Numbered from the stretch's first letter, positions 1 to 64,000 are shown. The stretch: 64,000 nt of DNA from a virus (IMGVR_UViG_3300029928_000001:96001-160000); one strand, 5' to 3'. Numbers and translations: made by a program. Notes: a model not told the origin generated them from the sequence alone.

Positions 1-1490
1 TTTAAATAGGACTTTCCTTCACTATCAGTATTCCAACCATTAGTATGCCAATTAAAATTATTTAAGATACAATCTTCAGTTTTGTTATTATAAGTGTATT
101 GCCATTTTTGACGAGATAAAAGACTTTCATTATTAGTACGACCATTAGCATTTAAATTGATAATCATTTGGTCTTTTTGGACATAATCCATATCTCTAGC
201 ACTCGGAGTTACTGTAATAACAAAACTTTCAGTTACACCTTTACAAGAAATACCATAATAATTATCACCAACAATTGAATCTGCAATTACCCAAGTAAAT
301 GGAGTTGATTCACTATATTGAACTTCATCCAAAGTAGTTATGACTAATCCATCATGTAATTGATCAATAGTCATTGTACCAGAAGAGCCAATAACAGGAT
401 CATAAACCATATACTAAACAATAATATCTTCATATTGCTCAATTGTAGTTGGTTTATTCATAAACCAAATAATTGGTGAGTTATTACCTTCAGCCGCATA
501 AGCAATTTCATAATTTAAATGATTAGATTCAATAGTTTTTCCATTTACAGTTGCTGTTAAATAAGCGTCTAAAGAATGAACGCCATGTGTCTGTAAATCT
601 GTACTATATATACTTGCTACAGCTGTATTATTAGAAAAACTACTTCCATACTCTTGAGTCTTTATTTCAAATCCATCAATTAAAATATGTAATATTTTTT
701 GAATTGCACCGACTGGCTTACAACTAAAATTAATTGGCTTATTAGCAGTACAAACTTTTTCTGGATTAAATCCTCCGTCATCGAGTCTTAATTCTACAAT
801 TTGCTATCCACCATAACGTACCATATCAGAACCACTATTGAGAGACTCTAATTTAATGTCAATTCTTGTACTACCGACCTAAAAATGAGATCCTAAGTCT
901 ACAATTAACTCATAATTATTAGGTACGGTTTTTTTATATTCATAATATGGTTTTACATCTACAGATGTTTCAGCATCATCAATTAAAGAAACTGTTACAG
1001 TAACAGTTGTGTCATTTTCAGCATAAGGAATAATAGTTAAGCTATAATGTTCGCCATAAACATATAAATTCTTTAACTAAGTTAGTATTTTATTTACAAA
1101 TCCAACTTTCGGCATTGCTGGCTAATCGCCTCCGCCCGTGCTGCTTCCGCTGATAGCAAGACGTTGGCAAAATACATATGTAGTCCCTAAAGAAATGACT
1201 TTATAGAAAGCGCCGTCAGGAACATTAATAATCAAATCATCTGCTTTTACTTTTTCACTTAAACCATTTCTAGTTAAAGTGTATTGTAAATCAGTAACTT
1301 TAACTGGGGCAGGATCATTACCATATAAAACAGCTACACCACTACCACCTATCAAAATTCTTTCTTGATTACTAATATCAAGATACATTTGTCCAGTATC
1401 AGTTGCGATTAAAAATTGCCCTGCTTCAATTGCAGTATTTTTAATGTTTTCGTTTAACCCTTTTACAGGCTAAAAACGTTGTTCTGACAT
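1..1490 (-). CDS. Large tail/structural protein, 5' part only (runs off the window); TAG read as sense
   Basis: ATG at 1490 after AAAGGAG; first TAG at codon 7; in frame with track ORF 1122..1388 and continues through its TAG. Confidence 0.7.
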
Positions 1491-1534
1491 ATTTTCTTTC
1501 TCCTTTCTTTCCTTTTTTAATATATAATAAAAAA

Positions 1535-1561
1535 TAGGGGAAGAGAGACTCTTCCCCTATT
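1535..1561 (-). terminator. Intrinsic terminator
   Basis: AATAGGGGAAGAG/CTCTTCCCCTATT inverted repeat followed by a T-run on the minus strand. Confidence 0.75.
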
Positions 1562-1625
1562 AAAACTATCTCTCTAAGAGATATAAAAAGTTTTTAAATG
1601 CTATTTATAACTTTTGTCCTTAAAA

Positions 1626-3293
1626 TTAAAAACTACCCCATACCATATTCATAGTAAGAGAAGCTCCATCTGCATTAAGCGTAATCGTATCTGATTTAAA
1701 GTTAAAGACAGCATCAACACCTATATTGTTGCTATCTGTTACAGTTGTTGTTACTTGGATATCTTTACCAGCAGTCTTTGCTTCTGCCGTTTGAGTTGCA
1801 CCGGTAAGAGTTGGAATACTATTAACGATTTCTTCTTCACCAGTTACAATTTTTGTAACATGACCATTATCTACTTCAAGAGATTTAACAACTGTAATTG
1901 TCTTAGTCTTTTGATAATCAGTTACTGCTCCATAAGCGGAACTATCCTCAGCGGCAGGAGTTTCTGTCGCTATATCAGCATGCGCTACAGTTACGACTCT
2001 ATCTCCATCTTCGGCAGTGTCATCAGTTAAAGTAACTTGTTTCCCTTCAGCTAATTTAATTCCACCAAGAATAGTTGGAGTGAGTGCTCCATCAGTAAGT
2101 TCAATACCATGAGTTACTTTTGTAACTTTAGTTTCATATTCATTACCAGAAGGAACAATCTCAAAACTAAAGCCAGTTTTAAGTAAACCAGTTGCTTCAT
2201 CTTCAGTACCTTGCGCAATTAATAAATCACCAACTTTAACTGTCTCACCATTATAAGTGAAATTACTCTTAGCCTTGTAAGTATCACCGTTTCTAGCTTC
2301 AGTTATTGCATCTGGACTTGCTACTGTACCACCAGTGCCAATAGTACCCTTAAATACCATTGCATCAGCAACTTTTAAAGCTTTATCAATTTCATCAGTA
2401 ATTTTTTTATCAGTTTGCGTAATCGTATAAACATCAAGAGCCGCCGCACCTTTTTGGAAATGCACATCTTTAGTATTTCCTTCAGCGCCAATTGTTACAA
2501 TAGGATCAAGGACAGAACTTGTCACATCAGTACCAGAAGTTTGCTTAGTCGTAAAAGTAAAACCAGTATCTCCATTTGCAAAAGTATGTTCTGTAACTTC
2601 TTGAACTGAAGCATCAATAGTAATACTTTTTTCTCCAGCGGTAACTGCTGCAATATTTGCACCACCAATTAAAGTAATTTCTTCATCGCTAGTGGTTGTA
2701 GTTCCATCTGCCGCTGTAACAATACTATGTTGTTTAATAGTTGCAGCTTTTTTATTATCTTTAACTTGCTCTGTTAATAAAGTTAAAGTGACCCCGCCAG
2801 TACCAGAAGAAGAAATAGTAATTTCTTTTTCATTAACTGTTAAAGTAATACCCGCGCCTTCTACTAAAGCAAAAGAATCAGCTTTAGTTGCCCCATCAGT
2901 GTCAGATGCAGTACTAGTGTCAGATACAGTACTAGTAATAGTTACTTTTTTATCTGTTTTGTCACTCACAGAGGTGGAAAAATCTTTTAATTTTGTATCT
3001 GCATTAATTTGAATAAAATTTCCTTTACTCCATACGCAAAGAACATTTTCTGCGGTTGCAAAATAAAATTGACCTGGCTCTGCGGCAGCTGGTAAAGTTG
3101 CAACATTAGCTACTGTAATTACGCCCTGATTTACTGGAACCGGACCAGCAACTGTACCAATGTATAATCTGTTAGTATCACTTGTTAAATAAAATGCACC
3201 TTCAATAGTACCAGCAGGAGTAGCAATTAAGTTATTAACGCCGGCTTGAGTACCAGATAAAAACTATAAATTTTTACCATTTAAATTTGCCAT
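1626..3293 (-). CDS. Thr/Gly-rich virion fibre/structural protein, 555 aa
   Basis: ATG 3293 with AAAGGAG; single TAG at codon 10; in frame with track ORF 1626..2969; ends TAA. Confidence 0.75.
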
Positions 3294-3313
3294 TATTTAT
3301 GACTCCTTTCATA

Positions 3314-4132
3314 TTATTCGTCTGTAATTGTCATCCATTTTAATCTACCATCAATTTCGGTAATTTTTTCAACTAAAGTATTATTCTCTCCACCATAACT
3401 GCTTAAATCACCAATTTTTTCTTGGACGATAGTATTAAAATTATTTGTAACTAAAGTACCAACTTCTGCTTTAGTTACATAATCGCTTAAATCAGTTTTC
3501 CAATCACCGACTTTTTCTAATGCCCCATTGACTACAATATACTCATCATAAGTATTTTCACCATTCGGCACAAGATAAATATATTGTTCTGCATCTGCTG
3601 CTGTAAGGTCAATTGCCTCTACAGAATCAACAATTTTACGAGATAAGGACTGATTTAATTTACTATTAATTTCATCTTTAGTATAAACATTTAAAACTTC
3701 AACGGCTTGAACTGGAGTCATCCAACCCAAATTGCCGTCTTCTTGTTTATAAGGTAAAGTACCTATTTCCGCAGTTTCAAAATTTTTTAAGCTAAGAGTC
3801 CCAACTTTTGCTTTTTCAATAGATTTATCATCTACGGAAATAATATCACTAATAGAGCCGTTTTTCCATGTTTTCGATTGTTCATCGTAAATTAAGATTT
3901 GTTTATCACCTATTTCAGTAATAACAATATCCTATAAATTTCCTAAAGAACTACCAGCGGCTCCACCTGTGCCACCAATTAATCGAGACCCTAAATATAA
4001 AGACCCAGAACTGGAATCGGCACTATCATAAATAAAATATAAAGTATCATCAGACTTTTGTGCCAAATTAGCAAATGCCGTCTTCGATCCTCTGACAAAC
4101 TTTACATAATCATTAGTTGGTTTTAAAGCCAT
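3314..4132 (-). CDS. Putative head/tail fibre-like protein, 272 aa
   Basis: Track ORFs 3932..4132 and 3314..3730 are in the same frame and joined through the TAG at 3932; contains YIYLVP...YDEYIVV..ALEKVG. Confidence 0.7.
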
Positions 4133-4181
4133 CCTTTACTCCTCTCTTTCAATGTTTATGAAGATTATTTTTTTATATTTA

Positions 4182-4213
4182 AAAAGACTTGACCAAAATG
4201 GTCAAGTCTTTTA
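4182..4213. terminator. Intrinsic terminator, possibly bidirectional
   Basis: AAAAGACTTGACC-aaaat-GGTCAAGTCTTTT. Confidence 0.7.
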
Positions 4214-4217
4214 TTCA

Positions 4218-7200
4218 TTAAGCATTTTCTAAAGCATCTAACCTTGCTTCTATTTCAGATATTTTATTAGCTATATCCAATGTTTCTAAATTACTAATAC
4301 GCTCATCTAAACCAGTAGTAACTGTACTAATATTTACATCTTCTAAATCTTTTATTCGTTGACTTAAAGCACTATCCGCATTTTCACTAGCAGTTTTATT
4401 TTCAGCAACCGTATTAGTAAGAGTTGTTAAATCAGAACTGCCAGATGTTTTATTGTCATTTACTACTTTTGTTAAAATATCTATATTGTCTTGAAGTGTT
4501 TTATCAGCATTAGCTCGTACTGAAGCTTCTTCTTTTAAAGAACCAGGAGTCTCAGCCGTACCCATTAAAATACTTAACTTATATGCATTTTTACCAATAG
4601 CAGTAGCTAAAGTGTCACTCGCTTGAATTTCTCCTGACTAATTTCCACTATAACTAGATAACACGATATCGCCTAAATTAGTTTTAGTAAAACTAAAAGC
4701 TCCTGTGGTATCTTCTAAATTTACTGCAGTAATAACATTACCATTATCAGTCATTGAAGATGACACTTTCGGCAAAGTAATTTCATACTCTTCTAAAGTA
4801 TTTACATGCCCTTTCCCATCAATACTTACTTTTGGAATAACAAATTTATTGCCAAAATTAGGAGAGCTATTTTGCAACAAACCTTTTGTATTTACAGCAG
4901 TTTGCGCATTTTCATGCTCGATCAATAATTCATTATTATTAATTTTTGTATTTAACCAATTATCAGTAGTTTTTATACTAAAACTGTCATGAGTATTTTG
5001 AGCTTTATAAGAACCACTATCAGCATTTAATTCTTGAATACCATAAGGTAACGTAATAGTAGTTAATTCTTTGTTCGTAATATGACCCGCTGCATCTGAT
5101 AATGATTGACTAATTTCAATAGTATCACTTTTATTAGTGTTTAAATTTATTTGAGCAGTAACATCATCAATTTTATTTTTTTTGTTGTGTGTAATATATA
5201 CTTTTGGATTTGAAACATCTGGGTCAATATGAGTTGTAATCCATTCATCAGTAATAGAAGGCGCTGAATGCATTCTTCCATAGCTATCAGTTACCATAAA
5301 ATGACCACAATCTAAAATTTCAATTTTAGCAATAATATCATTTAAAGTATTTAACGTACCTTGTACAGTAGAAGTATTTCTAGTTGTTTCATTTCCATAT
5401 TCTAAGAAATTATTAATTTCCAATAGTAAACCATGAATGGTATTAAGTGTGCGCGCAAACCCTACTAAAGGTTTCATAGTATAACTATTGTCATTTTTGA
5501 CTCCTAAAGTAATATTATGGGTTACTGGTATTTGAGTATTCCAATGCGAGTATAGTGGTAAAATACCTTTTGTATCTTCATAAACAAAGAAATAATCATT
5601 GCCTAAATAGTATTGCCGGTTTGGTGTAGCTACGGCATTATTATCAATATAATAACGATTATTAAGACGATAGTAGTATTTTCCTGACTCATATAAATAT
5701 ACATCAGTTAAATCAATAATCTATGATTTTATTGCTTCTTTTGGTATAGTATAATATTTTCGGCCCGCAACAAAAGCTCCATTACCATCAAAATACCAAG
5801 ACTTTCCAATTTCATCTTTATAATAATACAAATCACTTTGATAAAAACCAATGTTAGAATATTGTTTAAAAGATAAAGTATAAAAATATTCTGGCTCTGA
5901 AGCGTCATATTCTGGTAATTCACTATTTAATTTAACTTTAATATAATTATCATCAATTAATTTATAATAATTTACTGCACTTATAGACTTATCCAAAGGA
6001 ACTGTTGGAGTTAAAATATATAATTCATTAACACTTTGGAATTTTGCGTCAGATGGATTATAAGTATAAAAAACTGGTTTTTTTGTTTCATTTTCATAAA
6101 TAATATCCTGCTCATCCCCAACAAATTGAATAAAAGTATTAGGTGTTTCATATATATATTTATAACTTGGCTCAACTGTGCCCAATGTTAAATCAACAAG
6201 TTTATTCGTAAGCACATCATAATATTTAGTCGATGTCTCTTTCCAAACTTCAAGAACGCCGCTATCATCATTATAAGTATAAAGATAAATTTCTCGCATT
6301 TCACCATCGATTAAACGAGTTATCTATTCTTTCTTTTTTCGTCTATAAGCCAACAACGCATTTTTATCACGATTTGCAATATCTGCACCATTCATAGCTT
6401 GACTAGCTCTATAGTAAGTTAAAGTTGGATCTAATCCACGTAAATCTAATTTATAAACAATTTTATCCTTTTCATCATTAACGGCAGAATAAAATCGTCC
6501 TCCTTCATAAATATATCTAGCATCATGACGCACAGGAGAACCATCTATTATATATTCAAAAGCTTGAGTTGGTCCATCAAGTTTCTTATCAAGATAGTAA
6601 TTTTCATCTTCTAAATAATAATATTTATTAGGTTCATATGTTGAATCTAAAGTAACAACAGAAACTTTAGTTTCATCAATGGTAAAATATTGTTTGTCCC
6701 TATAGAAAGTTTTATCATAAATAAAATCTCCATTAGAATTTCTCCAATAATATTTTTTACCATCCATTATACTTTCAAAAGTAGAAATAGGAATTTCTCT
6801 TATTCCACCATTTACTTTACGAATATAATAAGTTTCTTGTGCATCATAAGTTCCGGTGGCCTCTTCATATAAATCATTCTTTTTTATATAATAAGTAAAA
6901 TTATTATATGACTGTTCTGTTACCTCGGTCGCTTCTTCGTATATATAGCCATCTGTTTCAGAGCCAGTTTTATCATTGTTTAATGGTTTTAAATCATCTG
7001 AAGGAGCTTTTCGATAAAATTTATCTCCTAAATAATAAATTGCATCATTATTGGCAGAGTTTTCCGCGAATTCTTTAAAATTAAAGTCTTCTGGAATATC
7101 CTTTTTTTCCTAAATAATCATGCCCATTAAATCATGTACTGAATTAATTGCGCCCGCAAGTGTTTCAACGTCAGTCTTATGATATGTATAAGTTTCTTCT

Positions 7201-8561
7201 CCATCACTTTGAATTAATTGAAGCCGTCTGCCTGAGCCGTATACTGGACTATCTTTCCAAGAGATATCAGTTAAACGCTCAGAAACCTTATCTGTTCCTC
7301 CAGAACCGGTACCATATACTACATCCCACATTTGGCTAATAGCATTACCAATACCAGGCAATACCATAGAAATTTCTTGAGTATCAACTGCATGCTACGT
7401 TTTCCCCGGGATATGAGAATTATACTAAGTATCTGCCCATTGTCCTTTATCATCAGGAGATTGACTATAGCCAGTAGTATCAATCGTAAATTTATCTTTC
7501 AAAGAAGAAATATACCTTGCTTTTGGATTAAAACCTGCCTTATTATAATATATAGCCGCTGGTAAACGTCCATTCTCGCCAATTTCATCAAGTGTAGCAA
7601 ATTGCCGCCATGTACCTGCAGTAGTATAATAATACATTGTAATTTTATCGGTTTCTTTATTATAAACTTTTCTAATCCAAGTCGTTGTTTCATCAGATAA
7701 AATTTTGTCCGTATTCGGTTCTTGGATTGCAGAACCGTCAGAATGTTCTGCCCCAGCATGCTAAATGCGCATCCCCCAAGGAGACTACCAATGCAAATTA
7801 TAATATACATCTGTACTTGCGGCATCAAAATGAGGCGCGATAGGCATTTGCGTAGGCGCATCTACCGATATATCAAAAGTCGGCACTACAGTATTTAACT
7901 CGGCTACCATAACATATTTATCTTGCCCATTTATCAAAGTTTTTTGCCATACTGTAGAATCCCATCCATGTCCAGTTAATTCAAATCCTTTTTCTTTGGC
8001 ATATTGTATATCAATATTATAATTATTTGCGTAATTATTCTATGAAGTAATACTAGAATTAGTTACCTTATCAAAAATTGCATATTTTTTACCTTCTGAA
8101 AAATAGTTTTTTATACTAGGATCAGTTAAAGTTTGTGATTTTCCATTGACATACATGGTAGTAACACCATTCTCATCAATTTCAAAATAACCTACACAAG
8201 TATAATATATATTTTTTGTTCCTTCAATTATATATACTATAGTACCAAGAGTTGTAGTCATTAAAATTCCACCTGGGGTTATAAACTCTTCATCACTATA
8301 AAGAATTTTCCCTATGTCGCTAAAGTCTGCACTATAATATAAAATATAATGACCATTAACTAAATTTAATTTTTTATTAAAATATGCTTTCTTGTAATCT
8401 AAACTAGAAGCTTCAGTATCATATTCAATTAAAATATAACGTCCCACATAAATGCCATCAGTGCTAGCATTTTCATCCATTTGCTTTCTATTGGCATATA
8501 TTCTATCAAAAACAAAGGAACTATTTTTTTCAATATCTTTTATATTACCATAAAAACCCAT
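4218..8561 (-). CDS. Large tail fibre/baseplate protein, 1447 aa, with Tyr-rich repeats and a C-terminal coiled coil
   Basis: Seven track ORFs (ending 8040, 7425, 7110, 6324, 5721, 4638, 4218) share one frame; all but the last end in TAG; final stop TAA. Confidence 0.75.
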
Positions 8562-8563
8562 TA

Positions 8564-8914
8564 TTATTCCTCCTCTGTCTCATAGATAGCATCTACAATT
8601 AAATAAGCACCATTTGTATTTAAAATTTTATTAATTGAATCTTGATCAAAACTTAAAGCGGTGATATCAGTCAAACCACTCAAATCTAATTCATAAATTC
8701 CAGTACCTCCAATAAAAATTGGTTCAATACCTTCATTTAAATAAAATTTTACTCCAGGAATAGTCTAAATACCTAATTGTACAATTGATTGTGATTCGCC
8801 GCCATCTTTAAAAAATACCTAGCCATTAGAAAGAGTACTCAATGAAATATTACTTGGCTAATTGTCTTTATTATCAGGTCCATAATACCTGAATTGACTT
8901 ACTTTTTTTGCCAT
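8564..8914 (-). CDS. Hypothetical tail protein, 116 aa (3 TAG codons; absent from the ORF track)
   Basis: GGAGGT RBS, ATG 8914, MAKKVSQFRYYG...ETEEE, TAA. Confidence 0.7.
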
Positions 8915-8927
8915 TATTGTACCTCCC

Positions 8928-11315
8928 TTAAATAATTCTTTGCGGCGCCATTTCGGCATCTATACTCATTGTACCATTATAAGATAATGGTATAGAAATT
9001 CTTGAAACTAAATATTCTCCATTGATTTTGCTTTCCTAATCATATACATATATTCTATTATTTGGCTCTAAGTAATAAACAGGTATAGCAGAAATATTGA
9101 TAGATTCTTGCCCATATGTGTATTCATATAAAAAAGAATCAATAACATCTTTTGCACTTTTTCCTTGCGCACTAATAGAAAACATATTTTTTACATGATT
9201 AGGCAAAATTACATAAGTATATCCAGTTTTATATTCTTCAGTATATTTATTATATTCTTCCAAATTATCAAAAAAAATTACATTTGGAGTTGTCCTATAA
9301 TAAATAGAATTCACATCTTGATCATTAACTGCTTTTGGCCTATCTCCTATTGCTTTAATTGAATATTTACCAAGTTCACCATCAGTACTTAAAAAATCAA
9401 ACCAAAAATTTAATAATTCTGGATTATATAATAGATTACGATTCCAATAATATAAGTTCGGATCATCAGTAAAATTTTCTTTAGGCTATTTTTCGTTTTC
9501 CCTTTGGGCAATCGGCAAAAAGAAATTACAAGACATACTATCCCATTCTTTAATAGAAGGCTACCAAGTTAATACTTTTGTAAAAGCACCTTCTATATTA
9601 TCACTGTCTATTGGTTGTTCAGTTGTTTCATAAACCCCACCTTTATATGTATATGTAGCTTGCGCATTTGGGTTATAAAGTTGCCGCCAAAATCCTTGCA
9701 TATCAATATAATATTGTTCATAACCAGTTTTTCCTTCTAAGTATGGACAATATATACTTCCATCATCTAATTTAATAGTATTATTTTCTTGAATAGTAAT
9801 TAAAAAATCATCTTCTTGATTATGTTTATAAAAATCTAAACACATTTGATAAATTAATTCTCGCCAATCTCTAATAATAATATTATATTTTTTTAAAGCA
9901 GATGGAATGATTACCTCTTTTGCTACATAAGCGGTTTTATCATAAGCTATATACCACTCTGGTTTATCATCAATGGCAATCCGCGAATGTAAAGCCACTG
10001 TATTATTATTTCCTATTTCTCGTTCGCCAAAAACAGAAAAATCATTTTTAATATTATTTAATTGTGGATTATGATTAATTGATGAGATTAACTTATTGCG
10101 TTCAAAATTATAAATAACTTTTGAAGCCATGGCGGCATTTTCCGCATAAACATCATCCTAAGTATCAATTAGACTATCCCAAGAAGTATTTAAATAAGTT
10201 CCTTTTCGTTCAAAAACAAACTATCCATCAATATTATAATAATATTGAAAATCTCCAAGCATATTTATAATTTTATCTAATACTGCATTTGTTATTGTAT
10301 CTCCGACTTGACCCATTAATTCTCCAGCATAAGTTAATTCTGTCATACGATAACCGGCCGTTTGCCCATACTCACACTTAGCAATATAATATTGTTTATC
10401 CCCAATAAGAACTGGTTCTAATTTTTCATTAAATCCATCAACTAAATTATAAATATGAGTTACATCTAAATCTTTTAACTTAACATTTGTGCCATCAAAA
10501 TACTAACAAAGCATTTCACCATTAAGAGTAATATTAGAACATGTATCTTTATTTTCAAATATAAAAAACATTGGATTTTCTACTCTATATTCCAATAATT
10601 CCAAACCAGTATCATCTACATCATTAATAATAATATTATAATAAGGCTCATTGGCATAAGTATGAATTGCTTCTCGAATAATTGTTTTAATAGGTACGGG
10701 AGTTAATGTACGCTCAATACTCTAAGTATAGTAAGATACTCCATCTTTAAATTCTTCAAAAGAAATAGTATATTCATCATTTTGTTTAATATAATACATA
10801 TTAGCTCTATATTCGCTTTTATCTTTAAAAGTAACTAATTCATATTTAGTATTTACTTCTTCAATATTAGCAAAATCAGTTGGCGCACTAATATTACCTC
10901 CAAGAGTTCCATTCAACATACACATTTTATCTTGTCCAGAAATATTAATATTAAAACCACCAGTAGAATAAGAAGTAGAAAAAGCAGTAATTAAATACGT
11001 CCCTTGCGGGAACCATATAATTTCCTCATCGGTAATTTCACTTTTTAGCCCAATTTCTAATTTGAACTTAGTTTTTAATCCCCAATAATAATCAGTAAGG
11101 TTAATATCTTTTGCCACTATATTTAAAGAAGAACAAGTCCGTCGAATCGCGGAGGAACCATCAATATTAATAGTCCCTCCAGTTATTCTACCTTCAATTG
11201 TTTCTATTGGTTCTTCGTCATAGGTTAATGCAATAATACGAGCATAAACTATTTTATTGCGCGATTCATCTAACTATTTTAAAAAATCTAAATCTAACAA
11301 AGGATTTTTAATCAT
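8928..11315 (-). CDS. Tail hub/baseplate-type protein, 795 aa
   Basis: ATG 11315 after GAGGAGG; track ORFs ending 10722, 9561 and 9036 are in frame; lies downstream of the tape measure gene. Confidence 0.7.
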
Positions 11316-11316
11316 A

Positions 11317-54320: not shown

Positions 54321-54376
54321 TTCCAAAGGCGGGGGAATAAATCCCCCGCCAATAAAAAAGAAAGAGGTGGTAAAAA

Positions 54377-54607: not shown

Positions 54608-54668
54608 TCCGCCTATTGACTTTTATAATTTATTATGTTATAATAAATTATAAAGAAAAATAAAGGAG

Positions 54669-55058: not shown

Positions 55059-55310
55059 AATTTAGACAGGAATTAAATTCCTGCCTATTTTTTCCATAGT
55101 TTTTGGAAAACTCTGTCAGTCTTGGGAGAAATTTCCAGGCGGCCGCCCGCTCTCGAATGAGGCGGGCAGTTTTCCACATTTTTACAGTATTGGCACAATT
55201 TTTCAACCAAAAGAACATGAAAAAATTTTAAAGAAATTTGCCCGAAACCCCTTGACACGGTACGCAATTCATGTTATAATAAGGTATACCAAGAGGAAAG
55301 GAGAAAGAAC

Positions 55311-55526
55311 ATGGAAAAGGTAATGATTTACACTTTAGAACCTGTTGACGCATTTACATTTAATTACTTTTATGGGGTAGCTACTACCATGAGAGAAAAA
55401 GTAAAGAATTTATCTTCTATTATTGAAGATGTAAAGTTTAACTATGAAGATGATGAAGAATTAACTGTCTACTGGGCAGACGGCACAAGCACAGATTATT
55501 TTATTCAAGAAAAGGAGTTGATTTAA
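55311..55526 (+). CDS. Hypothetical protein, 71 aa
   Basis: RBS and own promoter. Confidence 0.7.
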   Translation: MEKVMIYTLEPVDAFTFNYFYGVATTMREKVKNLSSIIEDVKFNYEDDEELTVYWADGTSTDYFIQEKELI

Positions 55527-55528
55527 TA

Positions 55529-56017
55529 ATGAATAATTTTATTATCTTTTTTACACTTTTAACACTTGCCAATGTTATTATCCAAACGGTAAAATCACTT
55601 GTCACCATTAAAGGGGGCAAGTGGACGGCGGCAACGGTCAACGCAATAACTTTTGCACTTTATACCTATGTTATTTTCTTCACTGCCGTTGAGGGTATTG
55701 CCCTTTGGCAAAAGGCTTTAATCACTGGATTATGTAACTTTGCGGGAGTGCTTGCCGTGAAGTGGCTTGAAGAGAAAACCGCAAAAGACAAACTTTGGAT
55801 TTATAACTGTACTGCCAAAGTGGACGGCACAGAAATCAAAAAAATTGCAGAATTGCTTAAGGAAATGAACATTTCATTGACTTATAATGAATTAAAAGAT
55901 GAATTGTTTACAATGAGTATTTACTCATACACACAAAAAGAATCTGAAATGATTAAAAGTGTATTAGAAAATTATGATGTAAAATATTGTGTAATTGAAA
56001 CAAAGGGGGTAAAATAA
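55529..56017 (+). CDS. Membrane protein, 162 aa (three hydrophobic segments plus a soluble C-terminal domain)
   Basis: Hydrophobicity pattern; resembles DUF5698/DUF2179-type proteins (inference). Confidence 0.75.
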   Translation: MNNFIIFFTLLTLANVIIQTVKSLVTIKGGKWTAATVNAITFALYTYVIFFTAVEGIALWQKALITGLCNFAGVLAVKWLEEKTAKDKLWIYNCTAKVDGTEIKKIAELLKEMNISLTYNELKDELFTMSIYSYTQKESEMIKSVLENYDVKYCVIETKGVK

Positions 56018-56229
56018 TGGAAATTAGAGTTGTAAAAAATAATTATAGACCATTTAGAGAAGTAGCGACAGGAGAAGTGTTCTTGTATAACAATGAACAC
56101 TACATGCGGACAGAGAGTTATGGCGGTTGGGGTATCAATGCTGTGAATTTATTCACAGGTGAGTTGATTACCTTAAATCAAGCTGATAGTGTAATTCTTG
56201 AAGATAACTGTTATTTAGCTATTGAATAA
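56017..56229 (+). CDS. Hypothetical protein, 70 aa
   Basis: TAATG coupling to the previous gene. Confidence 0.75.
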   Translation: MEIRVVKNNYRPFREVATGEVFLYNNEHYMRTESYGGWGINAVNLFTGELITLNQADSVILEDNCYLAIE

Positions 56230-56506
56230 ACAAGAGCCTGGATTTTTCCAGGCTTTTCCAGTCTCTCGAGGGCCCTTCCAGAAATTTACAGAAACTTTTT
56301 TAGAAAACCTCTTGACAGGATAGCCCCATTATGTTATACTATAATTGTTCCAAGGAAGAGAATAAAAAGTGAGCAAATAAGCTCAAAGAAAAAAATAAAA
56401 AAAGTTTGAAAAACCCTTGACAACAACAACTGAATATGTTATAATAAGGTATAAGTTAAAGAAAGGGTACCGCCACCTAAGAGCGGAGAAAGAGAAGTGG
56501 TAAATT

Positions 56507-56869
56507 ATGGAAAAGAAAATGACTAAAAAGGAAATGTTTGCACAGATTATCAGAAACTACAATCTGACAACAGAGGAAGTAGACTTCCTTAACCATGAGA
56601 TTGAATTGTTAGCAAGAAAAGCTGGCAAGGATAGAAAGCCAACTGCTAATCAGTTAGCTAACCAGTCCTTAAAGGCTGAAATGTTGGCACTTATGGAAGA
56701 TAACAGACTGTACACTTGTACAGAGTTATCCAAGGAGTTACAGAAAACTCATGTTGAGGATATTTCTGTAAATAAGACTTCCGCATTACTTACACAGTTA
56801 GTCACAGAGGGTTCTGTAGAAAAAACTGTAGAGAAAAGAAAGTCTTACTTCTCCAAGGTTTTAGGTTAG
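56507..56869 (+). CDS. Winged-helix DNA-binding protein (paralog of 53964..54320)
   Basis: Identical MEKKMTKKEMFA start and KTVEKRKSYFS end; TAG stop. Confidence 0.8.
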   Translation: MEKKMTKKEMFAQIIRNYNLTTEEVDFLNHEIELLARKAGKDRKPTANQLANQSLKAEMLALMEDNRLYTCTELSKELQKTHVEDISVNKTSALLTQLVTEGSVEKTVEKRKSYFSKVLG

Positions 56870-56899
56870 GCTCATGCCTAACCTAAAGGGGGCAAGCCT

Positions 56900-57256
56900 A
56901 TGACCCAAAAGGAAAAGTTAATAAAGTTAGGTATGACCGAGTCAGAGGCGGACAATGTTCTTGCCTCTGACCGTCAAATTGATAAAATGACCCGCATGGC
57001 TGACATCAATTCAGATTTGACTGATGAACAAAAAAAGGTAGTAAAACAATCAAAAAATGTTAAAAATTATACCAAAACGGCAAGAAAACCAAAAGAAAAG
57101 GTTGAAAATGCGGAAAAAGTAGAGATAATTGCGCAAATAGCTGACTGTTTGATGCCTATAGTTGACTGTTTAAGCGTGGAAAATGCCGAAAGGGTGATAA
57201 AATTTACAAAAAACGGGCAAAATTATTCAATTACACTAACAAAACATAGGAAATAG
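56900..57256 (+). CDS. Hypothetical protein (paralog of 54669..55058)
   Basis: Ends RK-TAG, followed directly by a terminator. Confidence 0.8.
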   Translation: MTQKEKLIKLGMTESEADNVLASDRQIDKMTRMADINSDLTDEQKKVVKQSKNVKNYTKTARKPKEKVENAEKVEIIAQIADCLMPIVDCLSVENAERVIKFTKNGQNYSITLTKHRK

Positions 57257-57452
57257 GGGAGAAATCCTCTATTTTTATTTTGGCTCGCCGCTCACTGAAG
57301 CGAGAGGCGAGAGTTTTCATTTATGGTATCTCTTACCAATTTTGGCAAATAAAAACTGGAAATTACTTCTATTAAATTTTTTCCTAAAATCTATTGACAA
57401 TTTGCGCAAGCTATGCTATACTATAGATACAGTAAAGAGAGGAGATAAAAAA

Positions 57453-57644
57453 ATGGATAAAAGATTTTATGAATTAAACAAAGAAGAGATGCAAGAAATG
57501 AGAAATACTCTGTGGGATGCATTCATGGAGCAGTTAAAAGATTGGATTCCTAATTATGAATGGGAAGAACTGGAAGAACTTCCAATGTCTGAACAAGATG
57601 AAATTTTAGAGAATTTAATGAATAAAGTTAAAAAAGATTTATAA
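57453..57644 (+). CDS. Acidic hypothetical protein, 63 aa
   Basis: GAGGAG RBS; own promoter. Confidence 0.75.
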   Translation: MDKRFYELNKEEMQEMRNTLWDAFMEQLKDWIPNYEWEELEELPMSEQDEILENLMNKVKKDL

Positions 57645-57700
57645 AAACCTGTTGACAAAGTATTATACTGTTAGTATAATAAAAAAAGGAGAATAGAAAA

Positions 57701-57907
57701 ATGGATAAAAAATATTATAACAAGCCAACGCAAGTAAAATTTTATGATGTAGACAATGATTTGTGGGTAGGCGGTATTGCTTACCATGATGAAATTATTT
57801 GCGGATGTTGTGGCGGTATTCAAAAAATTAGTGAGCTTAAGGAAGATGAAATTATTGAGTATACTTATTGGGTAAATATTAGTGATGAAATTAAAGGAGA
57901 CTGGTAG
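57701..57907 (+). CDS. Hypothetical protein, 68 aa (ICGCCGG motif)
   Basis: AAGGAG RBS; own promoter; TAG stop inside the terminator stem GGTAGGCT/AGCCTACC. Confidence 0.75.
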   Translation: MDKKYYNKPTQVKFYDVDNDLWVGGIAYHDEIICGCCGGIQKISELKEDEIIEYTYWVNISDEIKGDW

Positions 57908-58371
57908 GCTGGAAAAGCCTACCATTTTTTTTATGTCCATTTGGCGGGTCGCCCTCGGAGGGGGAGACCCGTAATCCCCTCCCTCACCTCATATGGCAAT
58001 TTTTTCTGGTGAAAGTCGACCCCGCATATGCGCCTCTTCATTCCCGAAACTTTGCTACACAAGAGAGGGACCCCCAGCCCTGCGGGCCGAGAATGAATTA
58101 TCCAAAGGCGCCCCCATATGGGCGCCCAGAGAGTGTAAAGCGTTTCTTTATTTGAAAAATTTAAAAAAATATGTTATAATTAAAAAAACGGCATTTTTAA
58201 GCCGCGAGACACAAAAAAAAGTAGGTAATTAACCTACCTTTTATCTATTTGCCACGATTTTGGGCTTTGACAAGCCCAAATGAGAAAATATTCAGCCCAT
58301 TATTTTTAATGGGAATAGACGGCCATCTAGCTTTTCTACGGATAGCAAAGTTAATAAGGAAGTGAGAGCTT

Positions 58372-59058
58372 TTAAAATACACACCTTTCATAAACTGGCA
58401 CCTTAATCGGCCTTACCCCATATGTTAAATAATACTCATTTAATCCGCTCAAGAATCTTTTATTTTTCTCAGCCCCAATGCGCATATACGCTTCTTGCTA
58501 AGTAATATTACCCTCTTTTAATTCTGTCAATAAATCTTCTTCTTCTTTAATATTAATACTAAAATTAAACATTCCTCTTAATGTTTCTACTTCTTCATCA
58601 CTCATTAATACATACGCATTTTTATTCGGATCTAAATAACACCATCTATAATCAGTTTTAGTATAATAGCCCTGTTCAACTAACTCTTTTAAATTAACTC
58701 TAGTATAACAGGTAATAGTAGATAATTTCAAATCTAAAGCCTATATTTCTCCTTCTACTGATATAATTCTTGCTATATTAGATCCTGTCTACCGATTATC
58801 TGTTTCAATTGTTTCTTTAATTTTGTCTTGAAATAATGTCTTACGTTTTAAATTAGAATATTCTTTATACGGAATAAAATCTCCATACTATTCATGAAAT
58901 ATATAATAAATACTATTGCCTTTTATTATAATTTCATAGTCATAAAAATATTTAAGATGCTATTCCTATATATTACGTTTATTCCTTAATGTTCCATAAG
59001 ATATACCTAACTCTTTAGCTAATTCTTTTGAAGAATATTTTTTTTCTAATTCTATCAT
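58372..59058 (-). CDS. HTH DNA-binding protein, 228 aa (6 TAG)
   Basis: YSSKELAKELGISYGTL HTH; includes track ORF 58498..58731; TAA stop. Confidence 0.7.
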
Positions 59059-59560
59059 TGCTCTAATCCTTTCTTAATAGTTAACTAGTAGCGTCATTGT
59101 AACGAAATTTTTTCGGTCTGTATATATATAGAGCGCAAAAATTTAGTGACAATGATACAACTGTCATTTATATATAAAAGAAACCAAGAGAGAATTGATA
59201 AACATTGCCCAAATTAAAAAAGTATTCATTTTTATTAAACTAAATAAAATCTCTTAAGTTTGATAAAAATGAATACTTTAGCGGGAACTTGTTCCTGCTG
59301 GGAGAAGGGAGAAAGAAATTTTGAAATGAAATTTTGGTAGAGTCCTTTTTTGAGATGAAAATTATAGAGTTTCCTTTTAGGGGAACGAAGTTCCCCTAAG
59401 GCCAGAAGAGAAAGATATGATTGCTATTACTATAACGATTGCAATAAAAACTGCGGGAGGTGGTGGTGGCGCGAGGGGCAGGCAACTCCCACCATTTGTG
59501 CAATTAACATACTCCCACCATTTATGCGGTTAACACCGCACTATTTTACCCATCCAACCC

Positions 59561-60490
59561 TTAATACTTATACTCACAAACTCTACCCGCTAAATTCCCC
59601 TCAGGCTCCAAAAGCGCAATAGTAGCAAGTTCCATACTTTTCACATCACGTTCAGTTAAAGTAATATTAGCATTTAACCTTGCTACATCAATCAACCTTA
59701 CAAATTCAATATCATCCTCTGGTTTTATCATGCTATAAAATTTTAATTCTTTACTACCCATTTGAATCTTTTCTTTGTGCTCATTCCACCTTAATTCAAA
59801 ATCTCTCATAGTCATACCCACATATAATAAACTACCATTTTTATAAATACCATAAATTCCAAAAGAATCAGCAGCTGATAAATGCTTATACTCTCCTTCA
59901 ATACCACAACTATATCCTGCTTTATTCTTAAATCGCCTAAACACATAAGATTTTTTCGTTAAAGCGCTTAATTTATCAACATAACCTTCTTTAATTTTTA
60001 TATTGCCCTGCCAATCAACTTTCATCCACGCATGTTCATTATCTAATATAGTCCAATAAACAGATAAAATATCTTCCCAATTATAATATTCTCCTATATG
60101 ATTTTCTATCCATTCTCTATCTCTAAATTTATCTTTATATAATTCTTTATACTTTTTTGCTAATTCTTTTTCATATTCTTTATCTATTTTATCTTGCTCT
60201 TCCTTTTTCTTTTTTCGTTCAATATCTTCTTTAAATTCAATATACTTATTAGGTTTTAATAAACAAGTATATTCATACCAATTTCTACTTAATTTAAGGC
60301 CTTCACAATATTTTTTCTGAATATATCCAATTTCTTTCTTAGAAATAACAATTGTTTTATTTTGCGCAACTGCATCTTTTAATCCATATTTTTCATCTAA
60401 ATAACTATATGCTTCTGCTAGCATTTTCGCTTTTGCCTTACTTAAATTTCTATTTACACCTAAATCATATATTTCTTCTGCTGTATACAT
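59561..60490 (-). CDS. Protein with C-terminal GIY-YIG endonuclease domain, 309 aa
   Basis: GIYGIY..LLYVGMT..FELRWNEH. Confidence 0.8.
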   Translation of the reverse strand: MYTAEEIYDLGVNRNLSKAKAKMLAEAYSYLDEKYGLKDAVAQNKTIVISKKEIGYIQKKYCEGLKLSRNWYEYTCLLKPNKYIEFKEDIERKKKKEEQDKIDKEYEKELAKKYKELYKDKFRDREWIENHIGEYYNWEDILSVYWTILDNEHAWMKVDWQGNIKIKEGYVDKLSALTKKSYVFRRFKNKAGYSCGIEGEYKHLSAADSFGIYGIYKNGSLLYVGMTMRDFELRWNEHKEKIQMGSKELKFYSMIKPEDDIEFVRLIDVARLNANITLTERDVKSMELATIALLEPEGNLAGRVCEYKY

Positions 60491-60501
60491 TTTAATCTCC
60501 T

Positions 60502-61050
60502 TTAAAATATAAACTCATCTCTTTCAGCGACCGGTAGAGTTTTTGCGGCGTCAGCCGTAAAAACTCCCTTTCCGACGTTTTTTACGTCAGTAAAAAACCC
60601 GGAAAACGTAACATTATCATTGGGGTTTTTCCGGTTATTACGTGTTATATCTTCAACCTTTTTTACGGGTTCTTGCTTTTTCTTACGGAAATACTTTTCT
60701 AAAGAACTAACTGAACAACCTATTTGCGCAGCTATGTCTTTATAAGTATAACCCTGCGCGCGCAACTCATCAGCTTTATTATAATCAATAGTAGAAGGTC
60801 TTCCTCCCTTCGACCCATTCTCTCGCGCAGCTACATATCTATCTTTAGCACTACTTATAGAAGTAATGGTTTGTTCTAATCCATAAGCCCATACAATATC
60901 ATCCTCTTCTGGAATAATACCATATAGACCATAATTACAAACTGCCTCTAAAAACATATCCGCAGCTTCTAAACTAACTAATTTCTTTAATCTTAAATAA
61001 TTCTTAAAAGTGCTTTCATAAAATACAAAACTTTCAGTATTTAATGCCAT
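60502..61050 (-). CDS. Putative replication initiator-like protein (DUF6291-like N-terminus plus HTH), 182 aa
   Basis: SFVFY...YGLYG...ENGSKGGRP, then TYKDIAAQIGCSVSSL. Confidence 0.65.
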   Translation of the reverse strand: MALNTESFVFYESTFKNYLRLKKLVSLEAADMFLEAVCNYGLYGIIPEEDDIVWAYGLEQTITSISSAKDRYVAARENGSKGGRPSTIDYNKADELRAQGYTYKDIAAQIGCSVSSLEKYFRKKKQEPVKKVEDITRNNRKNPNDNVTFSGFFTDVKNVGKGVFTADAAKTLPVAERDEFIF

Positions 61051-61051
61051 A

Positions 61052-61225
61052 TCATTTACCTCCTGACACTAAATCTAAAAAACATTTTTGTATTTCATCA
61101 CTCCATTCATAAACCCAACAAGTAAACTCCGGCTTTTTAGGATTAGGCAGTTGCGCAACTGGCTTAAACCCTCTCTACTACAAGCCTAAATTAATTTTTA
61201 ACGAATAAATTATTTTGTTTGTCAT
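61052..61225 (-). CDS. Small hypothetical protein, 57 aa (tandem TAG-TAG)
   Basis: GAGGAGG RBS; MTNKIIYSLKINLGL(QQ)RGFKP...WVYE. Confidence 0.65.
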
Positions 61226-61351
61226 TTGATATTTGTCCTCCTCATACCGTAAAAAACCATAATATAGTTTTTACGACTTAATATTATTAACCCGTAATTA
61301 TTAAATTTTACGGGTTTTTTCTTACGATAAAGTATTTTATACTCTATTCTT

Positions 61352-61380
61352 ATTATAACAAAAATTTTACGATTTTGCAA
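61352..61380 (-). promoter_or_regulatory. sigmaA-type promoter
   Basis: TTGCAA-N17-TATAAT with extended TG. Confidence 0.6.
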
Positions 61381-61478
61381 ATTCATCGTGAAATCTGTCG
61401 CCACTCGTTCTTTATTACGACTATGTTGTAACAATCCCCCTTTATTTTTTCTTCCGTAGGATGAAAAAATAAAAAAAT

Positions 61479-61497
61479 AGGGAGCTTTCGCTCCCTA
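61479..61497 (-). terminator. Intrinsic terminator
   Basis: TAGGGAGC-GAAA-GCTCCCTA plus T-run. Confidence 0.75.
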
Positions 61498-61501
61498 AAA
61501 A

Positions 61502-62600
61502 TTAACTCATTCTACTTCTTATTTCATATACTCCACAAAATTTATAACCCAAACTCGAAAAATCTAATTTACCGGTTACTATATTCTAAACTTTATTAGA
61601 ATCAGTAGACAAAAAAGTATTAATATTATTATTAGTCACCTTATAAGTATCACCATTTAATAAAGTTACTATCATATATACATTTCCAGAAATAACCTAA
61701 TATAACTAGACCTAAACAATTGTTAATTCGTCATATATTACCTTTGTAGGTTCTATTAACGATATTGTGACATTAAAACATTCCTAATATGGAAAAACAA
61801 TAGTATTTACATCCAAAGGAAATTGCACCATATCTGTCGGTAAAGTATAATAATTGTCTCCTTCTAATTCAATATAATCTAAATCATATGCACTAAAAAA
61901 TTCTACATCTTGTTCTTTAAGAGCTTGAATAGCTGCTGAAGAAAAATTTAATTTTTTCTTTTTATATCCTAAGTTTTTATTGAATAAAATGCTTATTCCA
62001 TTAAACATATGACTAAAAGCAAATATGTTACTATTATCAATTTCAGCTTTAATTTGCGGTAATGACTAAAGATTCCACTATCCAGTAAATAATCCGGAAT
62101 ATACCTTTGTATTATTTACATTTTTAGATGGTAAAATTAATTCACTTAAATCGACAATATGTGAAAGATTTGTTAGAGATGCTGAAAACAATTCAGCAAA
62201 ACAATAATCAGGAGGCTCAAAACTTTCATCATAAGTATAATGAACTAATGCATTTAAATTACCAGAAATTTTTATATCTAAACCAACAGCATTATATCCT
62301 TGAAGTGAGGCAACACGTACGCGTAAACAACTAGGACCTTCATTAGAAGAATATAAAGTAGTACCATCTACTCCTCGAATATACACATAAGAAGATTCAT
62401 TTAAAGATATAGCATCACTATCATTAATAAAAAGATCTGTCCATTTAATCGTATCTAAACTATACTGCCATTTTCCATCTCCACAAAATCTTCCTTCAAT
62501 CACTAAAGGTAATCCATCAATACTTTCAAACTTTACCCATTGCGGCAAAGCCTGCATGCCCCCCCCCCTCAGTTTGCACACACGTATTTAAATAAGCCAT
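61502..62600 (-). pseudogene. Putative tail-fibre/adhesin gene, frameshifted at a G10 tract (365 aa if G9)
   Basis: ATG 62600 (MAYLN..) is out of frame by one base at 62559..62568; downstream frame is open through TAGs to TAA 61502; BspA/LRR-like YCFAELF..LILPS. Confidence 0.6.
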
Positions 62601-62662
62601 ATATTGTTCACTTCGTTTACAACACTTCTTCTGGTTGTAAACTACTCTCCTTTCTAAAAAAA

Positions 62663-63799
62663 TTACAAATACATCAATCTACACCCAAGAAACGCATGAG
62701 CATTAGACGCATCATAATTCACATAACAACAGAACAAGCCCGCACTATCACCGCCAGCCCAATTACCGCCCACACTAGCAAAACAACTCGCATTAACACG
62801 ACCAGAATCAGGCCAGTAAGTAGTTGATGAACCACCAGTTTGCTTTCCAACAAAGCCTCCACCATTTGTGCCTTGGAGTTGTTTCATGTATCCACTCATA
62901 TTTGAAGACAAACCAGAAGAGGTTGAGAAATCATAATCTAATGCTGTTGTCCCAGTTGTAAAGTTTGATGTTTTAGTTAACAAATTATAACTGCTGTCAC
63001 AATATAATCCACCTAACCACTGGAGTAAATTACCCCATGCATCCTCAAGACCAAATAATTTAACTCTGTCTGTACCACTTGAAGTATTACCATAGCACAT
63101 ACCTTTTTTATTTGTTGCACCCGTATTCTATTTTGCTGAACCACTTACATAACCTTTACCCAATGCAGCCTGTGAATTAAGATTACCATATTTAAGCAGA
63201 TATAAACATTGGATATAAGCCCATTGATAAAAGCCCATAATATCATAGCCTGAACCTCTCTTTTGTGCCGCAGCTATTGCATCTGTTAAACTTATATTCG
63301 TCAATGGCGCAGCATTAGAAATAGATTGCATTTTATTATTAACTTCATCACTTGCTAAATAAGCTCCAAGATATAAGTAATCCTGTACAACGCCATTCTT
63401 TGTAAATGCTCTATATTGAAATTTAGAATTATTTGGTTCATTTGTAATTGAAACAGTAATAACACTACCACTTGTTGTAATATTAACTCCCATCCTAGGA
63501 AATTCTATCATAACATCATACCTATCATCACCAGCATCTTCAATATCATTAGTAGTATTATCTCCATCTTCGTTTTCTGTAAAATCGTTTGGTCTCAAAT
63601 ATGTTTTTATCGTACCCTCACACATAATACAAGGTTTATATCCAAATATTTCATCCCATTTATCACTGCCCTTAGTCATACCAACCGCATCATCAGCATA
63701 TGTACAACAAGTGAGCGGATTTGAATTTGACTAATCTATTTTAAGTGTCCAAATTTTGTATTTACTTTTTGATTTTATTTTCTATTTAAAATAAGCCAA
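62663..63799 (-). CDS. Tail fibre/receptor-binding protein with C-terminal C-type-lectin-like domain, 378 aa
   Basis: TTG start; track ORFs 63128..63679 and 62663..63100 joined through TAG; GLEDAWGN and GGNW...AG...GCRL motifs. Confidence 0.75.
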
Positions 63800-63802
63800 T
63801 CC

Positions 63803-64000
63803 TTATTCATACCTCCCTCGTAAAATAACTATACCCGAGCCGCCATTGCCTGCAACGTAAGCATGTGAATAGTTTCTATTAACAAAACCTCCACCGCCAC
63901 CGCCTCCTGTATTAGCAGCTGCATGTATTGTCACATTAGATGAATACCCTCCTTGCGCGCCTCCTCCAGCACCACCGGATCCACCGTAACATTCAACATC
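63803..64000 (-). CDS. Glycine-rich tail protein, C-terminal fragment
   Basis: ..ANTGGGGGGG...AGNGGSGIVILR, TAA 63803. Confidence 0.7.
   Translation of the reverse strand, partial: DVECYGGSGGAGGGAQGGYSSNVTIHAAANTGGGGGGGFVNRNYSHAYVAGNGGSGIVILRGRYE

Follow-up and report, generated by a model that had tools for sequence, protein, structure and literature searches.

How can a single gut virus read TAG as an amino acid in one set of its genes and use it to end another set? This question is raised by a 64,000-nucleotide stretch of DNA, hereafter the window, which comprises bases 96,001-160,000 of one 178,419-bp viral contig (IMGVR_UViG_3300029928_000001). An original prediction, made from this stretch alone, held that TAG is sense in the minus-strand structural genes and stop in the plus-strand early genes and that the code switches during infection. 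In this study, we found that TAG stands for glutamine (Gln) in the late genes and that it is a genuine stop in a subset of the early genes. Our analyses favor, with a probability of roughly 85%, the published code-switch strategy, in which the early block is written in the standard code, the virion genes use TAG for Gln, and the phage itself brings the machinery. Positions are those of the window unless they are given as genome positions.

Results

TAG encodes glutamine in the late genes

The late block of virion and packaging genes (3..47437, minus strand) comprises genes for tail proteins, the tape measure, structural proteins, and the portal, as well as terminase-like pieces, and it needs TAG to be Gln. 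Minus-strand open reading frame (ORF) coverage at genome 80-144 kb is 0.1-0.7 with TAG as stop and ~1.0 with TAG as sense, whereas plus-strand coverage at genome 28-72 kb is unchanged, so that the comparison of codes 11 and 15 by region bears out the predicted split. The 32 minus-strand late genes at 1-47.4 kb contain 184 in-frame TAGs in 14,406 codons (12.8 per 1000), distributed over 26 of the 32. TAG is the sole interrupting codon, with no internal TAA or TGA, and accounts for ~28% of the Gln-like codons (TAG, CAA, and CAG). The same genes end in TAA (24 genes) or TGA (8 genes) and never in TAG, as had been foreseen. The tail tape measure protein (18466..26658, minus strand; phrog_4211, E = 1.4e-64), whose first ~660 residues match tape-measure PHROGs, has the predicted length of 2730 amino acids (aa); its description as an assembly of seven in-frame fragments was wrong, as the gene holds 64 in-frame TAGs. 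A second recoded block (58372..63799, minus strand), which includes a tail protein gene (phrog_5302), flanks the early block together with the first. From 58.3 to 65 kb, beyond the window end, there are 25 TAGs in 1949 codons, a rate like that of the first late block, and all of the stops are TAA.

The identity of the residue had been assumed in the original prediction. We placed an X at each TAG in the late proteins of 26-47 kb and compared them with 80 related loci by tblastn. The alignments do not end at the TAG sites but cross them. Of the 2307 cases aligned with these sites in the relatives, 1043 are Gln and 397 are stop symbols, against a background Gln frequency of 3.3%. The codons opposite our TAGs are CAA (801), TAG (397), and CAG (242), together about two thirds of ~2160 non-gap positions, and the next commonest are GAA and AAA. 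Because the alignments cross the TAG sites and the relatives hold CAA, CAG, or TAG there, the comparison of sequences confirms that TAG is Gln in the late genes. A single late gene, 28418..29356, has its only TAG 6 codons before its end, where the C termini of the relatives are too variable to call stop or Gln.

TAG as a stop codon in the early genes

The early set consists of 21 plus-strand genes (47646-57907) curated by ribosome-binding site (RBS) and promoter context. None of their 2468 codons is an internal TAG, in agreement with the original prediction, and at the late-gene rate ~32 would be expected (Poisson P(0) of ~2e-14). The other two frames of these genes contain 81 TAG trinucleotides; the in-frame lack is therefore not due to an absence of TAG from the DNA. 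As stops, the early genes use 14 TAA, 3 TGA, and 4 TAG codons, the last at exactly the predicted coordinates 53320, 56869, 57256, and 57907. The resulting TAG share (19%) is roughly that ordinary for low-GC bacteria. The four TAGs lie 4-35 codons before the ends of the corresponding code-15 ORFs (P = 7e-5 if TAG were sense and placed uniformly).

The TAG-ended genes, all on the plus strand, are that of a DnaQ-like exonuclease (52577..53320; phrog_20187, E = 1e-42), 56507..56869 (with a back-up TAA three codons on), 56900..57256, and a 68-aa gene at 57701..57907. Two of these have paralogs on the same strand within the block. The product of 56507..56869 is 68% identical (E = 1e-58) to that of 53964..54320, which ends in TAA, and their ends are at most 2 residues apart. 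The product of 56900..57256 matches that of 54678..55058 (36% identity, E = 1e-15); both end in Arg-Lys (RK), with TAG following in the former and TAA and then a terminator in the latter. The contrast of RK-TAG and RK-TAA that had been described for this pair holds, whereas the start that had been given for the second gene (TTG 54669) does not, with ATG 54678 being more likely. Elsewhere in the RK family, the ends are RK-TAA, RK-TGA, or RKPKN-TAA. The two paralog pairs indicate, from their sequences, that the early block contains a duplicated two-gene cassette.

For ortholog comparison we used L087, a 45.6-kb contig with a syntenic early block, which is itself TAG-recoded. Our exonuclease ends in KWGF-TAG, and its ortholog (80% identity) ends one residue later in KWGNS-TAA. 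The gene at 56507..56869 ends in KVLG-TAG and its ortholog in VVEG-TAA. The ortholog of 56900..57256 is only 53% identical yet keeps RK-TAG, and the sequences beyond the TAG (GRNPLF... in ours and AVKLLT... in L087) are unrelated. Reverse swaps, in which L087 has TAG for our TAA, occur in the gene for release factor 2 (RF2; TAG-K-TAA) and in the orthologs of 50508..50720 (TAG-L-TAA) and 53964..54320. Thus, the orthologs and the two paralog pairs stop 0 to 3 residues from our TAGs via TAA or TGA, and the L087 proteins end at or near the same place and are not extended past it. In the early blocks of most RF2-carrying recoded relatives, TAG likewise lies mostly a few codons from ORF ends.

The terminator context points in the same direction. 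The terminator that had been noted immediately after 56900..57256, an intrinsic one at 57249..57276 plus T-run (-13.9 kcal/mol), overlaps the TAG of this gene, placing it in the stem; the next in-frame stop (57296..57298) lies past the T-tract. The terminator at 57902..57924 plus T8 (hairpin of -19.4 kcal/mol, z = -5.0) similarly holds the TAG of 57701..57907 inside its stem, and the next in-frame stop (58010..58012) is again past the T-tract. Because paralogs, orthologs, and terminator context agree, these comparisons show, at the level of sequence, that TAG is a genuine stop in 4 of the 21 early genes. Neither of the refuting outcomes named with the original prediction, homologs stopping at late-gene TAGs or early proteins regularly continuing beyond TAG, was observed.

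The other two TAGs also lie in hairpins, that at 53320 within one of -19.5 kcal/mol immediately before the RBS of the next gene and that at 56869 within one of 13 bp (-19.1 kcal/mol), so that all four codons (53318, 56867, 57254, and 57905) are in stable hairpins of -14 to -24 kcal/mol. We dropped the idea that TAG stops are specially embedded in hairpins: ~6 of the 17 TAA or TGA stops are also in or against strong hairpins, and there are only four TAGs. The stop-codon hairpins may simply reflect genes ending at terminators. A fifth candidate, 50789..51127 (TTG start, TAG end), was also dropped because it has no RBS, overlaps a 76-nucleotide (nt) repeat whose other copy is intergenic, and has two sigma-54-like motifs inside it.

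The middle (replication) block at genome 27-72 kb contains 12 TAGs in 13,383 codons (0.9 per 1000), mostly artefacts of upstream ORF extension. Together, these counts hint at three regimes, in which TAG is a stop in the early genes, avoided in the middle genes, and Gln in the late genes.

Host-type promoters mark the early class

A scan of the whole genome for TTGACA-N16-18-TATAAT with at least 11 of 12 matches yielded 60 promoter matches, 20 of them on the plus strand at 49.1-57.7 kb and almost none in the minus-strand late block. These form an array (49158..57680) of ~20 near-identical copies of AAAACCYCTTGACA-N17-TATAMT with an extended -10 TG, behind which lie small genes with strong Shine-Dalgarno sites. 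The 20 promoters fall in repeat families D1-D4, which share an upstream AAAACCYC, the extended -10, and a conserved leader and RBS. We call the block early because consensus host-type promoters are confined to it, and we infer from the promoters and the gene content that 49-58 kb is an early regulon read by host polymerase.

The early block also holds the genome's only three perfect sigma-54-type motifs (TGGCAC-N5-TTGCA; 49097, 50979, and 51018, plus strand), of which 0.02 would be expected in the window. Two of them lie within the 76-nt repeat (49062..49137 and 50944..51019).

A release factor and an amber-containing regulator share a divergent promoter region

The plus-strand gene at 47646..48698 is an uninterrupted ORF that has no internal TAG and ends in TAA. 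Its product scores 398 bits on TIGR00020 prfB (cut-off 370) versus 241 and 232 bits on models of release factor 1 (RF1), has the SPF and GGQ motifs, and contains the Pfam PCRF and RF-1 domains; the gene has no +1 frameshift site. These features identify it as an RF2, which would read UAA and UGA and not UAG.

A divergent promoter pair (47545..47613) separates the RF2 gene from the first gene of the late-strand operon, with TTGACA-17-TATACT and a TG (11/12) on the minus strand and TTGATT-17-TATAAT (10/12) on the plus strand. This first gene (46388..47437, minus strand) encodes a putative sigma-like/helix-turn-helix (HTH) regulator with a Cys4 C terminus, and TAG occurs at its codons 9 and 77. 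A strong Shine-Dalgarno site precedes its GTG start at 47437, and its sigma-70-type promoter is at 47573..47545. The orthologs can be aligned from residue 1 onward, and the consensus at codon 77 is Gln. In PHROGs, it matches phrog_5767 "sigma factor" (E = 4e-47). In a structural model with a mean pLDDT (predicted local distance difference test) of 76, residues ~206-296 resemble sigma region 4/HTH with middling Z scores of 6.5-7.1; a profile of the protein found nothing meaningful among PDB sequences. Translation of this regulator would depend on suppression, which would make it a simple gate on late transcription.

Among the relatives examined, RF2 is present only in TAG-recoded ones. L001 and L085-L091, each of them TAG-recoded, have an RF2 with the SPF motif, and the TAG-recoded L058 has a partial release factor match in which the SPF motif was not seen. 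RF2 was not found in four TAG-recoded and five standard-code relatives, eight of which are 98-100% complete and one 87%. A search of IMG/VR by peptide patterns gave no match to RF2, and a large protein search returned many RF2 homologs on ~170-kb contigs. The RF2 gene of L087 (L087:9980-11050) ends in TAG, followed by K-TAA, though its own product cannot read UAG.

The suppressor tRNA and tmRNA lie outside the window

As had been reported for the window, neither ARAGORN nor Rfam reveals a suppressor tRNA in it. An 88-nt tRNA-Phe(AAA) called by ARAGORN at 50691..50778 was rejected; Rfam finds no tRNA in the window at gathering score. A search of the rest of the genome, which had been suggested as a check, located a tRNA-CUA at genome 9907..9978 (ARAGORN anticodon cta; Rfam tRNA, 44.4 bits). 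Going by the protein alignments, it would be a Gln tRNA. It belongs to one tRNA cluster with a transfer-messenger RNA (tmRNA; genome 9176..9465, L084:3176-3525 including the element described next), which is a full-length match to RF00023 (82.4 bits, gathering score 47, E = 1.8e-31) with the ARAGORN tag peptide AKNNYRPVLMAA. Each of the two RNAs is trailed directly 3' by an element resembling the hepatitis delta virus (HDV) ribozyme. The one behind the tmRNA (genome 9466..9525) scores 24.8 bits on RF02682 (HDV-F-prausnitzii), below the gathering score of 44, and the one behind the tRNA-CUA (genome 9979..~10040, L084:3979-4040) is recognized by its core motif only. The stem-flanked core, ACCTYYNCGTGG, occurs three times in 178 kb. 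In the records of 10 relatives there was no true tmRNA, only tRNA cross-matches below the cut-off.

The third copy of ACCTYYNCGTGG is at genome 6489 (L084:~460-530), with no recognized tRNA adjoining. A 29-nt promoter-like sequence, TTGAAAAATTTAAAAAAATATGTTATAAT, is also present in three identical copies, at genome 6344, genome 9518, and window 58152. The copy at genome 9518 is ~390 nt upstream of the tRNA-CUA, and the copy at 58152 has only an ~60-nt transcript behind it, closed by a terminator.

The phage lineage and its codes

The window encodes a portal, the 2730-aa tape measure, tail and virion proteins, homing endonucleases, and terminase-like pieces. We recruited relatives with the 524-aa portal protein (38132..39706, minus strand; phrog_2739, E = 1.3e-84), whose gene has 3 in-frame TAGs. 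IMG/VR contains 224 stretches related to it, with identities of 55-68%, on contigs of up to ~200 kb. The portal is 41% identical to that of gut phage phAss-1 and 26-29% identical to those of large Enterococcus, Bacillus, Lactococcus, and Clostridioides phages, and neighboring genes of the relatives encode SPbeta-type YonB, YonD, and YonG domains. These portal relatives and Yon-type neighbors indicate a large siphophage of the SPbeta/Phassvirus-related assemblage. A megablast comparison of 30-50 kb with a phage collection gave no match except one 52-nt stretch. Because of this result and the 41% portal identity, we place the phage, by sequence similarity, outside the proposed genus Phassvirus and relate it to that genus at a higher rank only. 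Judging by the hosts of relatives, the sigma-A-type promoters, and the strong Shine-Dalgarno sites, its host is probably a low-GC Gram-positive gut bacterium. GC content is 35-37% in the early block versus 27-35% in the late block.

Most of the 80 portal-linked relatives are TAG-recoded, ~25 loci use the standard code (0-2 in-frame TAGs), and at least one, L029, is TGA-recoded, with 21 in-frame TGAs. Close relatives, with portals 55-68% identical, differ in code within the same late genes, as seen in L029 and in loci L004, L018, L034, L036-L042, L045-L055, L057, L069, and L075. Seven relatives (L085-L091) share the layout of late block, regulator, divergent RF2, and early block, and their late genes have 8.5-10.8 TAGs per 1000 codons. 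Other viral contigs (L081-L083) contain early-cassette homologs with the same promoter and terminator layout. In L086 (L086:11020-13647), two TAG-rich genes, one with 11 TAGs and a radical SAM gene with 6, lie on the "early" strand just after RF2; recoded modules can therefore occupy that strand.

Discussion

A model for the use of TAG during infection

The arrangement of this genome is consistent with a model in which the meaning of UAG changes as infection proceeds, a switch that we infer from the sequence. After injection, host RNA polymerase and host translation, including host RF1, would express the early block. As the suppressor tRNA builds up and RF2 takes over termination at TAA and TGA, the stops of all late genes, UAG would increasingly be read as Gln. 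The first protein to be unlocked would be the sigma-like/HTH regulator, whose gene is preceded by a host-type promoter and interrupted by TAG at codons 9 and 77. The regulator would in turn activate the late operons, themselves without host-type promoters, and late translation would be blocked before the switch. Read-through of the TAG-ended early genes would then cover 4-35 codons or, where the transcript is terminated first, continue to its end, which could be tolerated because the job of the early genes would be done.

Several observations weigh against this model. RF2 cannot alone prevent host RF1 from terminating at UAG, and a requirement of RF2 for recoding in this group is not supported because RF2 was not found in four other TAG-recoded relatives that are complete or near complete; RF2 is an accessory that accompanies recoding. 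The tRNA-CUA lies behind a host-type promoter (genome 9518), and no sequence feature delays its transcription. The code does not strictly follow strand or block, as TAG occurs mid-gene in some plus-strand genes at genome 2-4, 17, and 20.7 kb and is missing from several minus-strand genes within the late block. The regulator is without a Pfam hit and without a Foldseek hit at E <= 0.001, and its sigma-like label derives from a PHROG name and the middling structural scores.

Alternative explanations

Some credence, well short of an even chance, belongs to the view that the switch exists and that the early TAG stops are neutral leftovers of cassettes recently swapped from standard-code phages, in which case they would say nothing about regulation. 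The early-cassette homologs in L081-L083, the higher GC content of the early block, the free interchange of TAG and TAA between orthologs, and the duplication of a cassette within the block all fit such an origin. However, RK-TAG is kept in an ortholog that is only 53% identical and belongs to a TAG-recoded phage, and several recoded relatives also have TAG close to the ends of ORFs in their early blocks; the stops therefore persist for a long time. A leftover origin is in any case compatible with the code-switch model and does not replace it.

The early stops could also be put to use. We speculate, as a long shot built on two genes, that they act as an expiry date for early proteins through read-through, run-off, and tagging by the phage tmRNA for degradation. 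In 56900..57256 and 57701..57907, the position of TAG in a terminator stem, with the next stop past the T-tract, would cause ribosomes to run off the transcript after the switch, and the tmRNA, with its AKNNYRPVLMAA tag, would mark the run-off proteins. The tmRNA has the same kind of HDV-like 3' element as the suppressor tRNA and has no true counterpart in the ten relatives. If the expiry idea were true, it would, along with the TAG-avoiding middle class, amount to a three-tier use of one codon: stop, avoided, and Gln.

A single code throughout the genome, in which TAG is always Gln (for instance because the host suppresses UAG), is improbable to a degree that we would not build on. The four early proteins would then carry short C-terminal tails, and something else, such as composition, would keep TAG out of the early genes. 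A TAA or TGA does follow within 4-35 codons in every early ORF that ends in TAG, so that code 15 gives nearly the same proteins, which corresponds to the "dual-coded" reading of Pfennig et al. (10.1101/2022.06.29.495998). The tails are unconserved, however, with orthologs and paralogs ending 0-3 residues from the TAG via TAA or TGA; two of the TAGs are in terminator stems with no in-frame stop ahead of the T-tract; internal TAGs number 0 versus the ~32 expected; and a phage tRNA-CUA would be pointless if the host already suppressed UAG. That the late genes, fragmented as they are under code 11, are instead pseudogenes, assembly errors, or cases of programmed read-through of a normal stop is scarcely credible, as only TAG interrupts them (184 times) and never TAA or TGA, Gln codons occupy the same sites in the 80 relatives, a dedicated tRNA-CUA is present, and relatives from many samples have the same pattern.

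Relationship to known recoded phages

Descriptions of TAG-to-Gln recoding confined to late genes, accompanied by a phage suppressor tRNA and RF2, go back to 2014, with detailed accounts from 2021 onward, and work by Ivanova in 2014 is said to be among that on TAG-recoded gut phages with late-restricted recoding and a proposed switch. The switch model was set out by Borges et al. (10.1101/2021.08.26.457843), who also reported suppressor tRNAs and RF2 in TAG-recoded Lak and Agate phages and found code-change genes to be written in the standard code. Yutin et al. reported late-gene-restricted TAG recoding in gut phages (PMC7886860), and Peters et al. added metaproteomic support for TAG recoding and the code switch (PMC9523058). 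Our phage resembles the TAG-recoded (code 15) gut phages in that its TAG codons for Gln cluster in structural genes, its early genes can be translated under the standard code, and it has a tRNA-CUA; some of those lineages likewise have RF2, and close relatives among them use code 11, 15, or 4. The phages in that work come mostly from crAss-like, Lak, and "gemstone" clades, whereas ours, with its 2730-aa tape measure, is a siphophage of the SPbeta/YonD-YonG type. The early genes of those phages are described only as "compatible with the standard code," and in ours TAG is documented as a used stop (4/21).

The Mgcod work of Pfennig et al. (10.1101/2022.06.29.495998) found block-wise codes that follow the strand, with "dual-coded" early blocks. 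Our genome is similar in that blocks mostly follow the strand, code 15 is required for the late block, either code gives almost the same reading of the other block, and the suppressor tRNA is outside the recoded block. Unlike the Mgcod early blocks, ours uses TAG as a stop (4/21, 19%) and does not merely avoid it. The phAss-1 group (Phassvirus) described by Babkin et al. (PMC10607447) consists of human-gut siphophages that, like ours, have very long tape measures (~3150 aa in the phAss group), TAG as Gln in the terminase, portal, and tape-measure genes, tRNA-CUA, and no dedicated aminoacyl-tRNA synthetase. Our genome is 178 kb with one tRNA-CUA, RF2, and a tmRNA, versus 133-138 kb with two or three tRNA-CUAs in Phassvirus.

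Kienbeck et al. (PMC10879173) describe theta ribozymes beside suppressor tRNAs in recoded gut phages and give 85% as the share of such tRNAs that carry one. As in those ribozymes, the HDV-like core ACCTYYNCGTGG starts directly 3' of its RNA, in our case both tRNA-CUA and tmRNA. Unlike the established theta ribozymes, ours are candidates, with an RF02682 score below the cut-off for the tmRNA copy and recognition by motif only for the tRNA-CUA copy. No mention of an association between theta ribozymes and tmRNA was found in the accessible text of that paper.

Our finding is therefore a rediscovery of known late-restricted TAG recoding in a new genome, with a modest addition: direct comparative evidence, drawn from aligned gene ends, that TAG is in use as an early stop (4/21; recurrent in relatives). 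It leaves existing knowledge unchanged and is of value as a well-resolved case from a siphophage lineage of the Gram-positive type. Close together in this genome are a promoter-defined early regulon in which TAG is still a stop and, at one divergent promoter region, RF2 and an amber-containing regulator; a suppressor tRNA and a tmRNA, each trailed by an HDV-like element, are also assembled here. The relatives with TAG-recoded, TGA-recoded, or standard codes make this lineage, given a host, a convenient system for the timing of the switch and the fate of host RF1. Annotators should note that this genome is called correctly under neither code 11 nor code 15 by itself.

Other features of the window

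Five minus-strand genes within the late block are examples without TAG (14163..14534, 26775..27287, 34015..34593, 35803..36582, and 45165..46376). Such genes may have high or earlier expression. Of these, 45165..46376 has an ortholog with 2 TAGs in L085, the closest relative.

Two regions without ORFs, 57935..58150 and 55100..55180, are GC rich and hairpin rich and lie just past the terminators of the region of the RK paralogs. They may be structured RNAs; Rfam gave no match in either at gathering score.

A gene resembling the terminase large subunit (41179..45165, minus strand) is in four pieces (44914..45165, 44086..44574, 42498..43043, and 41179..41727). Two insertions between the pieces carry endonuclease genes, one of the GIY-YIG type (43320..44111) and one of the HNH type (41912..42439). 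An Rfam search of 40.0-45.3 kb at E <= 0.1 found no group I or group II introns. The terminase large subunit is one unbroken gene of 576-577 aa in relatives L086 and L088. The 52-nt stretch that matched the phage collection (43198..43249) sits between a terminase-like piece and the GIY-YIG gene and shares 90-92% identity with unannotated DNA in Escherichia phage nepoznato and in several Vibrio phages.

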